Assembly: GCA_963422645.2 (NCBI GenBank)
Contig: CAXXVO010000005.1
Coordinates: 224,001 to 288,000 of the forward strand
DNA length: 64,000 bases
DNA from: Alphaproteobacteria bacterium
Lineage (GTDB): Bacteria; Pseudomonadota; Alphaproteobacteria; UBA828
Reading direction: 5' to 3'
Shown here: positions 55,422-60,734 of the stretch, piece by piece
Numbering within the stretch: the first letter of the stretch is position 1
Layout: each line of letters begins with the position of its first letter
The notes under the pieces: model-generated
Told to the model about the DNA's origin: nothing
The model's database searches: none
Seen by the model: only the letters and a program-made list of their open reading frames with translations
Position numbers and translations under genes: made by a program

Positions 55422-56369
55422 GCGGTCGCGCCGTCCAATGGCATTCATTTGGCGCGAAGATTGTTCCGGGGTTTTTTTGGTGGTGTCGTAACGAGTTGAT
55501 TTCTTGTGTGGATTGTCGGTCTCGGCGTTTCCCGCACGAGGGGGATTGACCGGCGGCGTGTGCTTTGGCACACTGTGGCTGTCCCCCTGTCAGTGGAGCC
55601 GGCCCATGGACCCCCGCATCACCGCGCTGAAGTCGACGACCTTTTTCGGCAGACGTCTGACCCGCCGGCAGATTGCCGACATCCAGGAGACGGTGGCGCT
55701 GTTTCCGGCGATCAGCCGCAACGAGCTCGGGCACACGATCTGCGAGCATTTGAACTGGCGCGCGCCGAGCGGGCGGAACCGTGTCGCGGTCTGCCTGCGG
55801 ATGCTGGAGGAGTTGGAGCGGCTGGGCATCCTGACCCTGCCGGCGCGGGACGAGGCGCAGGTGCGGGGGCCGCAGGAGGCGATGGCCCGGAGCGAGCGGA
55901 CGGCGCCGGCCGCGGCGATCGCGGAGGACCTGGCCGCGCTGATGCCGCTGCGCCTGTCGATTGCGGCGGGCAAGGAGGAGGGCGGGCTGTGGAACGAGTT
56001 CGTCGCGCGCCACCACTATCTCGGGCTGCATCGTCTGGTCGGCGCGCATCTGCGCTATTTTCTCCTGGACCGCCACGGGCGGCCTCTGGGCTGCCTTCTG
56101 TTTGCCCGGGCGTCGCGCGCGGTGCCCTGCCGCGACGAGTGGATCGGGTGGCCGGCGGAAGGCTTCCGCAAGCACCTCGATCTGGTCGTGGGTCACACGC
56201 GTTTCCTGATCTTTCCCTGGGTCCGGGTCGACAACCTGGCGTCGAAAGCGCTGTCGATGGCGCTGCGCCAGCTGCCCGGCGACTGGGAGGCGCGCTTCGG
56301 AGCGCGCCCGGTTCTGGTGGAGATGAAGGCTTCATAATGCTTCTCCGTTGTGCAGGTGGGCGGGCGTTT

Positions 56370-56510
56370 CTACCGCATTGATAGAAAAGGCGGTTTGGAT
56401 TCCGTTGTTGCCGCCGCGGCGACCTTTACATCGTGCCGGACGTGATTTTCCAGTATCGCACGTTGGAGGTGCGGATCTGCATCGGGCGTTTTGCCTGACG
56501 GTCCGGGCAT
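56370..56510 (-). CDS. Small hypothetical protein (46 aa) downstream of the recombinase
   Basis: Manual translation MPGPSGKTPD...FLSMR*; ATG 2 nt after the recombinase stop. Confidence 0.3.
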   Translation of the reverse strand: MPGPSGKTPDADPHLQRAILENHVRHDVKVAAAATTESKPPFLSMR

Positions 56511-56512
56511 GG

Positions 56513-58693
56513 TCACCCCCCATCACCGTTGAGCCCGCGCAGCAGCGGCAGTTCGTCCTCGACCGGCAAACGCACATACAGTCCGCGCGTCTTGCCGCGG
56601 GTCACATGGCAGCTGTCCAGCCTGCCCGCCTTGATCCGTTCCCAGACCGTCTGCCGCGTGACACCCAGACGATCCATTGCCACAGCGAGGGGAACAAACC
56701 CCTCCGGAGGCGCCTCACGAAAGCGCTCGCGCAAGGTCGGGGTCATCCGGATCCGAAGAGGAGCACCTTCGATATCGGGCTGGGCAACCGGAACCAGCCC
56801 CTCGCGGATCCAGCGATAGATGGTGTCATCCGAGACTCCGATCTCCTTCGCCACATCGGCAACGCCCATGAGCACCGGCTCGTCCCCGTCGGGCTGGTAG
56901 GGCGCAATGCCATGGCGGCGACGCAGGCTGCCAACAAGCTCGGCCGTGAAATCCAGACCCCGTGCTGTGCGCCGTCCCTGGCGGGTGAGAACCTTCGCGG
57001 TCTCCCGGTCGTTGTAAAAGCATGACAGCTTGCGCACGAGCTCGACCGTGCTGCGCTCATCGCGCCGGGGTGTCGGAGAGCCCGCGAGCATCGGCAAAGT
57101 GATCTCGTCGATCTGCCCGCCACGCCAGCGCAATGTTGCCATGATCTCACGCTCCTGTCGCGCAAGCTCGATCGTCACCTCGTCGAGGAGGCAGGCGAGC
57201 AGGCGCTTGCGCTCGCGCATGGTCGTCGACGACGCCCCCCAGACCTGCGACAGGCGCGCGCCGAGACCCTCGAAAACCGCCGGGGCAGGGGCCGCGGGCT
57301 GACGCGCCCGTGCCGCCTCAAGCGCTTCCTGTGCAGCCTTCTCGGCGCGAAGCGCCTTCTCCCACTCGCGCTCCAGCGTTGCCGCAATCAGACGGTTGTC
57401 GGGATCGACCTGCTTGTAGCGCCGCTCGGCAAGCCGCGCCTCGTACCGGCAGTGCTCAAGATCCAGCTCCCAACGGCGCAACGCGCGCAGGCCGCGTTCA
57501 GCAACATCACAAGCCGCCTGCCGGGCCGCCTCCACCCCCGCCGGCGTGACCGCATCGAGAAACAGACGGGCAACTTCCGCATCAACGCGCTTGCCGCCTG
57601 TCGACCAACAACCGCCGCGCCGGCGCGCAGCATCGCGCTTGCGGCACTCATACCCCCAGCCCGTCTTGCTGTAGTAGACGGTCATCGGCAATCCGCAGCC
57701 GCCGCAGACCGCGAGACCCTGGAGCAGAGCCGACCCTTCCCGCGCCGCGCCGCGGGCTCCGTCCGGAGCCATGTGGTTGCGGGCCAGCTGCTCCTGTACT
57801 TCAAGCCATTCTGCCCAACTGACATATCCCTCATGCTTCTCCGGCTGAAGAATATCCCAGCGCTCCTGGACCGGCCGCAGCGGCGCACCGTGACCAACGC
57901 CGCGTTTGAAGCCGTAGGCATAGGCGCCGCCCATCGCCGGGTTGGTGAGGATGCGGTACACCCGTTCATAGCGCGCCGGGCCCCATTCCAATGCTGCCCC
58001 CGGGTGCCGGCGAGAGGGAACATCCTCGCCCGCCTCACGCAGCAGCATCGTCGCCTGGCGGGCCGAACCGGCTTGCCGAAAACGCGCAAAGACCGTTGCA
58101 ATCGCCGCCTGAACCCGGGCATCCGGATCCTTCCGCAAAGTCGAGCCATCCCGCACAAATCCGATCGGAACGCGCGAGTACAACTCGCCACGAAGCGCCT
58201 TGTTCCGCTTTCCGCCCTCCATCCGGGCGCGAATAAGAGACAGCTCAGCGGCGCTCACGGTTCCCTTGATCCCCAGGACAAGGGAGTCGTCGTCCCGGCT
58301 CGGGCAGTAGATGTGGCAGTCCTCAACCAGAACCGTGTCGTGCCTGCGACATAGATCGAGAAGCTGAAACCATTCCATCGTGTTCCTGGCGAGCCGCGAA
58401 ACCTCAATCCCGAAGATGCCCCCGACATGGTCCCGGGCGATCAGGTCGCACATCTCCCGAAAGCCGCCACGCTCGCCGCGCGCCTTCTCGCTTGCGCTCT
58501 CGCCAAGATCGGCGTCGATCGTCCGTATCCGCTCGGCCGGCCAGCCAATCTCCCGGGCACGCTCGCCAAGCGCGTATTGGCGCAGCTGCGATTCCTGGTG
58601 CGCGTTCACTTGCAAGGGTGTCGACTGGCGAACGTAGACAACTGCAAGACGCTCAAGATGACGCTGGGTGATCTTCGACGGATCGACCGTCAT
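56513..58693 (-). CDS. Large serine recombinase with C-terminal HTH domains
   Basis: YVRQST (catalytic Ser), DLGESA, EVSRLARN, recombinase domain, zinc ribbon CGGCG...C..C, coiled coil and two excisionase-like HTHs. RBS GGAGG before ATG 58693. Confidence 0.93.
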   Translation of the reverse strand: MTVDPSKITQRHLERLAVVYVRQSTPLQVNAHQESQLRQYALGERAREIGWPAERIRTIDADLGESASEKARGERGGFREMCDLIARDHVGGIFGIEVSRLARNTMEWFQLLDLCRRHDTVLVEDCHIYCPSRDDDSLVLGIKGTVSAAELSLIRARMEGGKRNKALRGELYSRVPIGFVRDGSTLRKDPDARVQAAIATVFARFRQAGSARQATMLLREAGEDVPSRRHPGAALEWGPARYERVYRILTNPAMGGAYAYGFKRGVGHGAPLRPVQERWDILQPEKHEGYVSWAEWLEVQEQLARNHMAPDGARGAAREGSALLQGLAVCGGCGLPMTVYYSKTGWGYECRKRDAARRRGGCWSTGGKRVDAEVARLFLDAVTPAGVEAARQAACDVAERGLRALRRWELDLEHCRYEARLAERRYKQVDPDNRLIAATLEREWEKALRAEKAAQEALEAARARQPAAPAPAVFEGLGARLSQVWGASSTTMRERKRLLACLLDEVTIELARQEREIMATLRWRGGQIDEITLPMLAGSPTPRRDERSTVELVRKLSCFYNDRETAKVLTRQGRRTARGLDFTAELVGSLRRRHGIAPYQPDGDEPVLMGVADVAKEIGVSDDTIYRWIREGLVPVAQPDIEGAPLRIRMTPTLRERFREAPPEGFVPLAVAMDRLGVTRQTVWERIKAGRLDSCHVTRGKTRGLYVRLPVEDELPLLRGLNGDGG

Positions 58694-58844
58694 CGGCCGC
58701 CTCCCGATCCGCAATCCGAACCATCAGATCGGCCAGACCCTGCACGACGCGATCCCGGTCCGGAGCCGGAAACGCCAGCCACCGGTCCCGGCGCTCCTCC
58801 CACTCCATCAGCGCGATCAGCGCCAACTCCTGCTCCGCATCCAT
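58653..58844 (-). CDS. Small recombinase-associated protein
   Basis: MDAEQEL...RWLAFPAPDRDRVVQGLADLM; overlaps the recombinase start. Confidence 0.55.
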   Translation of the reverse strand: MDAEQELALIALMEWEERRDRWLAFPAPDRDRVVQGLADLMVRIADREAADDGRSVEDHPASS

Positions 58845-59148
58845 CGCGCCTGAGTTCCCTCTCATCAAGGTCATTCAGAAGATTAAGGAGGGTGAGGAAA
58901 TCAGACAACTCTCCGATCAGGCGTGGTGCATCCTCGGGACGGGCTCCAAGGCTCGTCCATGCCGCTGGTATCCAACAACAGCTGCCGTCCGGCATCCGAA
59001 CCTTCAGAGTCCGGCCCCCGTAACCTCCTTTGCGCCGATCGAGAATCTCGATCGCCTCACCGTCGAAAGGATGCTTGTAGCGTCGAATGCGAACGGGCTC
59101 AGGAGCCTCGGAAGCCTGCAAGATAGTAGTCTGTGACGTTCGTGGAGA
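58690..59148 (-). CDS. DUF5372/Y4bD-like accessory gene body; its start codon lies at the other end of the element (56335)
   Basis: VRI..YKHPFDG...DGSCCWIPAAWTSL motif; no ATG inside the element ahead of the HPF motif. Confidence 0.65.
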   Translation of the reverse strand, partial: SPRTSQTTILQASEAPEPVRIRRYKHPFDGEAIEILDRRKGGYGGRTLKVRMPDGSCCWIPAAWTSLGARPEDAPRLIGELSDFLTLLNLLNDLDERELRRDGCGAGVGADRADGVGGAPGPVAGVSGSGPGSRRAGSGRSDGSDCGSGGGR

Positions 59149-60734
59149 CCTTCGTGGACCCCAGCCTCTTCGACGGCGCCTGCTACCGCGCGGCCAACTG
59201 GCGCTGTCTCGGCGAGACCGGGGGCGGCAAGGGCAAGACCCGCAAAAGCGTCTACGTCTACCCGCTGACGCCGGACTTCCGCTCGATCCTGCTCGAAGGC
59301 CCGCGGCCGGCGCGGCGCGGGAACAGGACACGGCCGGCAGCGCTGGCGCCGGACGATCCCTTCGTGGCGCTGTGGCAGGACCTGATCGGCGCACTGGCGG
59401 CGGTGGCCGCCGATCACGACCGGGTGTGGCAGAGCCGCCGGCGGGTCCTCGACACCCTTCTCGTCATGCTCTTCATCTTCCGGCTGGCGTTCTCGAACGG
59501 CCGCGCGGGCTACGCCACGACGCTGGCCGGGCTGTGGGAGCAGTGCCGGGTCCTGGGCGTCGCACTGCCGCAGCCGGCGCCGGTCTCGGCCTCGGCGATG
59601 TGCATGGCGCGGGCCAAGGTCGACGAGGCGGTGTTCAAGACGCTGCACGCCGAGATCCTCAAGCGCGCCGACGGCCCGGCCTGGAAGGGCCACCGCGTGT
59701 TCGCGGTCGACGGCTCCAAGCTCAACCTGCCGCGGCCGCTGCTCAAGGCCGGCTACCGCACGCCCTCCGAGGCGGCCCACTACCCGCAGGGCCTGCTGAG
59801 TTGCCTCTACCGGCTGCACGCGAACATCCCGGTGGACTTCGACCTGGTCGCGCACGGCGACGAAAGAAGGGCCGCCCTCGCCCACCTCAAGGCGCTCTCG
59901 GCCAACGACATCGTGGTCTATGACCGCGGCTACTACTCTTGGGAGATGCTGCACGCCCATGTCGCCCGCGGCCTGCACCCCGTGTTCCGGATCAAGAAGA
60001 AGGCAGGCGCCGCCCTCGACGCCTTCATCGCCGACGGCCGCACGGACGCGCCGATCACCGTCGCTCCCGGAAAGGACACCCTGAGAAAGCTGCGCCGCAA
60101 GACGCCGCACGTCGACGCCACCCCGCTGCGCCTGCGACTGGTCCGCTACCGCATCGGCAGCACGGTCTTCATCCTCGCCACCACCCTCCTCGACCCCAAG
60201 GCCTGGAGCGTCGCGGAACTGGCCGAGCTCTATCACGCGCGCTGGGGAATCGAGGAACTCTACAAGACCTCGAAACAGGCCATGGCCGTCGAGGCCTTCC
60301 ACAGCCAGACCGAGCGCGGCGTCCGCCAGGAGCTCTTCGCCCACTTCAACCTCATCGCCATGACCCGGCTCTTCACCAACCGCAGCAACGCAAGCCTCGA
60401 CGCCGAGCGCCCTGCCGACGGCAAGCCGGCGATGAAAGCCAACTTCAGCAACGGCCTCGCCACCGTCGCGCGCAACCTCGAAGCGCTGCTGCTGCGCCAT
60501 ACGGCGATGGTCGCCGAAACCCTCAGCCATGTCCTCTCCTGCATCAACCAGGCGCGTCAGCGCCCGCACCCCGGCCGGTCCTGCGAACGCAGGTCGCGCA
60601 AACCCCGCGGCAAGTGGGCACGCGCAAAGCGGGCCGTCGCCTGAACACCTGAACGACAGAAACGCACGCAACCGACAGCGCAAGAACACGACTCCTTAAG
60701 TGAACAGTCGAAAACCGCTAAGTGAATGCCATTG

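Follow-up and report, generated by a model that had tools for sequence, protein, structure and literature searches.

Serine recombinases are intrinsically one-way. Junction promoters form on the circles of insertion sequences (ISs), namely those of the IS911, IS30, and IS110/IS1111 types, and in BPs-type phages integration removes the 3' end of the repressor gene, giving an active shorter protein. In the transposon Tn4451, a promoter for the recombinase gene is reportedly found at the circle joint, as Lyras and Rood are said to have described in Mol Microbiol in 2000. One article on Tn4451/Tn4453 and their recombinase TnpX gives a 2-bp target and a circular form (PMC3158075). Three further articles deal with a promoter switch of ICEKp1 that depends on the integrated or excised state (PMC13023037), the SSV-type integrases of fuselloviruses, of which the gene is split on integration and intact only on the episome (PMC5861418), and the integration-dependent immunity of mycobacteriophage BPs and its relatives (PMC4557955). 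Here we describe an element at positions 56317-59148 of a 64,000-nucleotide stretch of alphaproteobacterial DNA (the window, i.e., the whole stretch analysed; contig CAXXVO010000005.1, positions 224,001 to 288,000), for which a comparable dependence on the excised state is proposed. Judging from its sequence, it is probably an IS-like element driven by a large serine recombinase (LSR), with an attP site that splits the first cistron, so that this gene would be complete only on the excised circle or in a tandem copy.

The underlying observation is real and was confirmed in its anatomy, its ends, the conserved in-frame join, the conserved start at the far end, the lack of a start at the near end, and the coding signature upstream. 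The element is oriented antisense within an interrupted IS transposase gene and contains three open reading frames (ORFs): a DUF5372-like first ORF, an overlapping 73-aa ORF, and a 726-aa LSR. The features are as follows.

56317-59148, genes on the minus strand: whole element, 2825 bp with the core counted once, and the heptamer TCTCCAC at both borders.
56317-56323, minus strand: left-end copy of the core TCTCCAC, with the crossover TC at 56321-56320; the heptamer occurs once in each of 13 empty IS copies.
56322-56346, minus strand: translation start region of the far end and left arm of attP, with GGAG at 56346-56343, a 7-nt spacer, and ATG at 56335-56333.
56336-56512, minus strand: non-coding spacer of 177 nt, without an ORF, from the recombinase stop to the far-end ATG.
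56513-58693, minus strand: LSR of 726 aa with resolvase and recombinase domains, C-terminal excisionase-type helix-turn-helix (HTH) domains, and its own GGGAGG-N6-ATG.
58653-58874, minus strand: 73-aa ORF of no known family, in the +1 frame; it overlaps both the tail of the first ORF and the beginning of the recombinase gene.
58690-59148, minus strand: near-end part of the split first gene, DUF5372-like, open from the core; its TGA overlaps the recombinase ATG.
59119-59148, minus strand: right-end core (59148-59142, crossover TC at 59146-59145) and right arm of attP, encoding in-frame N-terminal residues.
55504-56316, plus strand: 5' part of the target gene, encoding the DruA-like N-terminal domain of an IS transposase (PF14236, 92.6 bits).
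59149-60644, plus strand: 3' part of the target gene, encoding the DDE_Tnp_1 transposase domain (76 bits).

The element ends are fixed by 13 empty copies of the target IS in the same genome, in which the flanks overlap by exactly the 7-nt core; the left- and right-end sequences are as an earlier note on this DNA had described them, and the repeat is not a chance 7-mer. The genome holds seven full-length and about four interrupted copies of the element in at least three types of flank. Four of the copies have identical flanks, and the remaining ones are inserted in related but different transposase genes. Two flank types have just TCTC in common with the element end, and only TCC is common to the element end and the flank of a 92% identical relative (L053). 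The bases common to all flank types and L053 are TC, and TC (GA on the plus strand) is therefore the crossover dinucleotide, in agreement with the central GA that had been noted in the junction. Such a 2-bp crossover, with a single core at the empty site, is as in LSR recombination, the sites here being read from the sequence alone. The imperfect dyad symmetry that had been claimed around the crossover is present, though modest: 12 of 26 positions match in the window, against a mean of 7.0 (standard deviation, 2.3) when the comparison is slid over the element, 83 of 2778 positions reaching 12. Among relatives, 15 of 26 positions match in G020 and 11 of 26 in L107.

At the near end, the ORF has neither ATG nor GTG upstream of the HPF motif. 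From the right-end core to this motif, the sole in-frame canonical start is a TTG, the eighth codon past the crossover, with no Shine-Dalgarno sequence ahead of it. The far-end ATG is followed by 11 coding nt before the crossover (three codons, and then the TCTCCAC of 56323-56317), and a scripted join of the two ends through the core yields an open frame of 156 aa from this ATG, confirming the in-frame gene across the junction that the earlier note had put forward. The domain part of the first ORF behaves as coding sequence, with 8/2/25 substitutions at codon positions 1/2/3 relative to L051, and the indels between the junction and HPF, in comparison with L051 and L054, are all multiples of 3.

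To see how the join fares in other elements, relatives were gathered from genomes of the same genus, from wider genome contigs, and from metagenome contigs, and three kinds of evidence fixed their ends: targets without an insertion, copies in unrelated flanks, or a repeated core. For the L055-type (actinobacterial) and L060 elements, the ends follow from uninterrupted group II intron reverse transcriptase (RT) genes, and for G020, G005, and G009a from the copies in unrelated flanks; G008, G009b, and G011 have homologous flanks, and their ends rest on a repeated core of 4-5 nt. The LSRs of the tested families are 34-42% identical to that of the window. The frame across the junction in homologues had been named earlier as a test, and the scripted join is in frame with the first ORF in all nine families (window, L055-type, L060, G020, G005, G009b, G008, G011, and G009a), as it is in 18 of 18 soil-metagenome insertions. 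G009a had been taken for a counter-example, in which the first gene carries its own ATG; longer flanks show the DUF5372 gene further upstream, with its join in frame. Two single copies (L091 and L095), for which the join looks in frame by hand, were left out of the count of nine.

At the far end, a start codon follows a purine-rich stretch in all nine families. This codon precedes the crossover by 14 nt in the window, L055, G020, G008 (with one of its two candidate cores), G011, and the soil families, and the distance in G009b, determined by script, is 1 nt off this spacing. GTG occupies the position in L060 and L066, as read by eye. The split gene of the L055-type elements is a different first ORF of 140-142 aa, with the DUF5372 gene next in order and provided with its own GGAGG-N7-GTG; what is conserved is thus the split of the first cistron, and not one particular protein. 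This extra first ORF (about 140 aa; L055:5579-5986, and also in L056, L057, and L059) matches no family, and its end overlaps the DUF5372 start as GTGA.

A further set of relatives comes from soil metagenomes, in which at least 553 matching stretches were found and 80 loci were kept (L100-L179). The DUF5372 gene is directly followed by the recombinase gene in all 72 loci with a recombinase match, the other eight being short contigs that end too soon. In each of the 35 far ends, a single ATG lies no more than 30 nt from the recombinase stop (and overlaps it in three); a G-rich stretch precedes this ATG, and the crossover AA follows at +14/+15. AA is found at the fixed place in 47 of 50 near ends, the three exceptions being truncated copies. 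The 18 loci with both ends, in 18 distinct pairs of flanks, all join in frame to ORFs of 151-167 aa; these elements are 2710-2734 bp long, and the circle would be almost entirely coding. The spacer between the recombinase stop and the far-end start, 177 nt in the window, is 13 nt or none in the soil family. A canonical start within codons 1-15 after the junction is found in none of the 47 near ends. Entropy by codon position is 4.11/6.19/16.3 from the junction to HHPF (22 codons) and 3.28/3.66/12.99 over codons 9-22. The third-position variation thus reaches above the internal start candidates, indicating that translation starts upstream of any of them.

Several points weigh against a gene that is completed only by excision, and they are considered here together with the alternative explanations. 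The back-joint expected of a circle was not seen in the Logan contigs of four runs (X1, X2, X5, and X7); the only joint there skips 2825 nt (56316 to 59142), as empty IS copies give. These contigs say nothing for or against a circle, because contigs drop rare forms. The junction 42-mer is absent from the organism's own assembly, terminal overlap marking a circular contig was found in 0 of 80 metagenome loci, and the joined form in 0 of 47 integrated copies. In favor of the split gene, a stored public protein, P0051 (ENA; two contigs, the longest of 1768 nt), carries a far-end-type pentapeptide followed by the near-end motif. Its N-terminus agrees at four of five residues with the in-silico join of L119 and at 0-2 of five with any integrated reading, and the joined form therefore exists in public assemblies; it could stem from a circle, from a tandem copy, or from misassembly. 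In the degraded relative L053, an in-frame TGA stands right after the core, as read by eye. The periodicity of the soil sequences is weak over codons 1-8 after the junction (0.83/2.53/3.31). Finally, the fixed distance between start and crossover means that the frame is partly held by att geometry within subgroups, so that families are not independent trials.

Internal start codons lead to the strongest alternative, which we nevertheless regard as unlikely: the first gene would be translated from such a start in the integrated state, the far-end ATG and purines would be part of an attP half-site, and the open frame a by-product of fixed att geometry where DNA is rich in GC. An internal TTG or GTG is indeed present in nine of the ten elements listed, and could give a shorter protein when the element is integrated. 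In the window and L051 it is the TTG at codon 8. L060 and the G020-type elements (1-2 codons before THPF) have a GTG just before the domain, and so do 33 of 47 soil loci, where it is codon 16. The tenth element, L054, lacks any canonical start. In the other 14 soil loci, the codon-16 GTG is replaced by GTA, GTC, or GTT, and since these other Val codons would not be tolerated at a start, the GTG is an unlikely one; moreover, coding periodicity in the soil family reaches at least seven codons upstream of it. The TTG of the window encodes a Leu that is conserved in the N-terminal motif of many homologues and lacks an upstream Shine-Dalgarno sequence. A start at this TTG, which the earlier note had listed as a condition that would overturn its proposal, is thus unlikely on sequence grounds. 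About 15 of 66 predicted homologues do begin 4-15 residues before HPF. It also speaks for a half-site that the far-end start codon abuts the half-site motif at a constant distance from the crossover, but, as read by eye, only ATG or GTG is found at this position, whereas the symmetric position in the other half-site is variable and without a purine-rich stretch.

A second alternative, that the integrated gene starts from flanking DNA as a fusion and the far-end start serves another use, such as outward translation or transcription into the target, appears to us quite improbable. At the window site the frame does remain open for 82 codons into the flank, up to a GTG, so that a fusion protein is conceivable (a further point to be counted against the split gene); at the far end, a frame of 207 aa runs from the ATG out into the flank; and gene callers often extend the homologues into flanks. 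However, the flanks vary between insertions (18 distinct soil pairs, and at least three types in the genome of the window), a stop codon three codons upstream of the junction closes the frame in 5 of 18 integrated soil loci, and the ORFs running flankward from the soil far-end ATG are unrelated sequences of 8-99 aa. Chance, by which a 7-nt repeat and an ATG would merely happen to be in frame in a GC-rich genome with many long spurious ORFs and one random join in three in frame, is scarcely credible in view of the nine families and 18 soil insertions in frame, the start region in 35 of 35 far ends, and the ends fixed by empty sites.

The split gene completed on the circle or in a tandem copy remains the explanation that we favor, and the properties of its protein are as follows. 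The window protein scores 17.1 bits against DUF5372 (PF17342), under the gathering threshold of 25 bits, and is tied by phmmer and alignment to relatives that pass the threshold (27.7 bits for L055, 31.4 for L060, 74.6 for G020, and 74.1 for L097). It is best called a divergent relative of DUF5372; the DUF5372 label given in the earlier note thus rests on these relatives, the window protein itself staying below the Pfam cut-off. No match was found in NCBIfam and PHROGs. The AlphaFold model (mean predicted local distance difference test score, 79.8) shows a predicted SH3/Tudor-like barrel and a helix, for which a Foldseek search of the PDB returned no match below E = 0.04, and only generic SH3, Tudor, and chromo barrels. 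A search of 1.84 billion representative proteins gave 66 homologues, with predicted N-termini from 0 to 138 residues before HPF, and the similarity among them begins abruptly at the motif that coincides with the junction. Gene callers thus give arbitrary N-termini, the true start being located at a distance of 2.7 kb.

In the integrated copy, the recombinase ORF is uninterrupted. The 733-aa ORF contains a Resolvase domain (PF00239; 62 bits, cut-off 23.3) and a Recombinase domain (PF07508; 41 bits, cut-off 21.1). The zinc beta-ribbon (PF13408, Zn_ribbon_recom) scores 24.2 bits against a cut-off of 25.3, and Cys330, Cys333, and Cys350 are invariant in 12 homologues. The C-terminus matches HTH_17 (39.9 bits) and shows an XisF-like match and an excisionase-family domain; one or two excisionase/MerR-type HTH domains are found there (56516-56870, minus strand; LSR residues ~609-700), in a position reminiscent of the HTH in IS607-type serine transposases. 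Across the soil family (L100-L179), the final 60 codons of the LSR gene show very low synonymous variation at codons -38 to -33 and -18 to -14, counted from the stop. These patches could be embedded regulatory or att-related signals; clear promoter hexamers were looked for in the same 60 codons and none was found. In the window, a sigma-70 scan of 56200-59400 gave no sites, the scan being of the integrated sequence and the joined junction lying outside it. The 177-nt spacer, in which the scan found no promoter, may still house one directed at the junction.

The TGA of the first ORF (58692-58690) overlaps the recombinase ATG (58693-58691) as ATGA, as it does in L051, L054, and 49 of 54 soil loci. 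Over this overlap lies the 73-aa ORF, which has tblastn matches of 50-93% in L051-L054 (with GTG in L051 where the window has ATG) and no family match in Pfam, NCBIfam, or PHROGs. A small +1-frame ORF of 50-73 aa over the DUF5372 tail is conserved at the amino-acid level from alphaproteobacterial elements (L051, L053, and L054) to the soil element L107. The last 60 codons of the first ORF differ from L051 by 5/7/10 substitutions in the frame of the 73-aa ORF and by 10/5/7 in their own frame, the changes in this tail fitting the former slightly better, and the small ORF is a candidate for a second accessory factor. Through translational coupling, recombinase synthesis may depend on the split gene. 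Such dependence is possible only, because the LSR has its own GGGAGG-N6-ATG and the tail overlaps the conserved small ORF. The earlier proposal that coupled recombinase synthesis is turned on only after excision therefore keeps its conserved ATGA overlap, but loses force from the ribosome-binding site of the LSR itself. Likewise, the translation-level switch that had been proposed stands as to the split of the first cistron and the frame kept across the junction in homologues, but not as to the switching of the recombinase.

From these features the following mechanism can be sketched. The mobile form would be an excised circle, released by attL x attR recombination and reinserted by attP x attB recombination across a 2-bp crossover (here TC), and insertion would be specific in site and orientation, antisense to a conserved stretch of the gene of another mobile element. 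The attP site falls within the first cistron, its left arm supplying the Shine-Dalgarno sequence, the start codon, and four more codons, and its right arm the next residues of the DUF5372 family. When integrated, the first gene would be without a translation start of its own, and on the circle or in a tandem copy it would be complete. The genes on the circle would form a closed ring, leading from the first gene through the small overlapping ORF and the recombinase gene back across attP; with the far-end start placed behind the recombinase stop or overlapping it, expression on this ring would have to cross attP. We infer that production of the full-length protein is confined to the excised state. 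The junction promoters known from IS circles and the ICEKp1 promoter switch suggest, by analogy, that the result might be a burst of accessory function while the non-replicating circle must reintegrate. Our guess is that DUF5372 is an LSR accessory that favors attP x attB integration or blocks its reversal. More broadly, and as a tentative and rather doubtful proposal, DUF5372 proteins may be circle-specific commitment factors of widespread, undescribed LSR elements that parasitise mobile elements, reporting DNA topology and acting on the recombinase after excision only, for example to drive reintegration or to prevent the reverse reaction. Such a role, if true, would be the inverse in logic of the classical recombination directionality factor.

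Several observations concern the targets, copies, and gene content of these elements. The uninterrupted target IS of the window encodes an unusually long transposase of ~770 aa, in which a DruA-like (PF14236) N-terminus is fused to DDE_Tnp_1, and the genome contains at least 17 near-full-length matches to its 3' part. The actinobacterial and soil relatives (L055-L060, L062-L081, and L100-L179) are inserted antisense in group II intron RT genes, at the codons for the conserved DIKxCFD motif. With IS transposase genes as targets in the window family and group II intron RT genes in these relatives, the elements seem to specialise in parasitising other mobile elements. Decaying copies (G000 at C8:597731, C13:39278, C5:429204, C8:744310, and C5:27665-34072) include two with TAA within the recombinase gene, two with a frameshift, and about four interrupted by other insertions. 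Besides the reference form, contigs of runs X2 and X5 show, over window positions 56350-57970, a second element variant that carries numerous substitutions and small indels. In same-genus elements (L027:693-1187, and the equivalents in G008, G009, and G011), the DUF5372 and recombinase genes are separated by a gene for a homeodomain-like HTH protein, which has matches to HTH_32 and HTH_23 and is similar to the N-terminal part of IS630 and IS481 transposases.

The control of direction and timing in small LSR transposons is poorly understood, and the present analysis defines a compact natural module of 2.7-3.4 kb that is shared by an alphaproteobacterial genus, actinobacterial genomes, and soil metagenomes (the at least 553 stretches above). 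It offers a testable handle on DUF5372 function, a translational version of junction switches, and a case of elements that target conserved motifs of mobile elements. For annotation, it means that the N-termini of DUF5372 proteins are mis-set by gene callers, and the attP/attB pairs and accessory proteins may be useful to users of serine-integrase tools. In a literature search with subscription journals and supplementary files outside its reach, no paper on DUF5372 was found by name, nor any ORF start region split from an accessory gene by a serine-recombinase attP, nor any LSR element family antisense in intron or IS genes. The novelty claimed in the earlier note accordingly holds for the architecture, of which no description was found, but not for the principle of a gene intact only on the episome, which has precedents in SSV integrases, phage immunity, and junction promoters.

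A comparison with these precedents places the element as follows. IS circles and ICEKp1 resemble it in that expression follows the integration state and the 3' end of the element supplies a signal to the 5' genes after ligation; they differ in that the switch is transcriptional and belongs to DDE/DEDD transposases or tyrosine integrases, whereas here it would concern translation initiation and protein completeness and involve a serine recombinase. With the phage BPs it shares an attP within coding sequence and a change by integration in the protein made, but there the 3' end is removed, whereas here the 5' start is removed and a full-length protein is not expected. The SSV-type integrases likewise have the att site inside an element gene; there, the tyrosine integrase itself is cut within its body, whereas here the recombinase is intact and an accessory first gene loses its start region and five codons. 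Tn4451/TnpX resembles it as an LSR-driven transposon with an excised circle, a 2-bp site, and a joint that reportedly creates an expression signal. Unlike Tn4451, the window element is without cargo or mobilisation genes, and no promoter hexamers were found in it (scan of 56200-59400). The joint of Tn4451 reportedly makes a promoter for the recombinase, whereas the joint of the present element completes the coding sequence of an accessory gene by providing its ribosome-binding site, its start, and its first codons.

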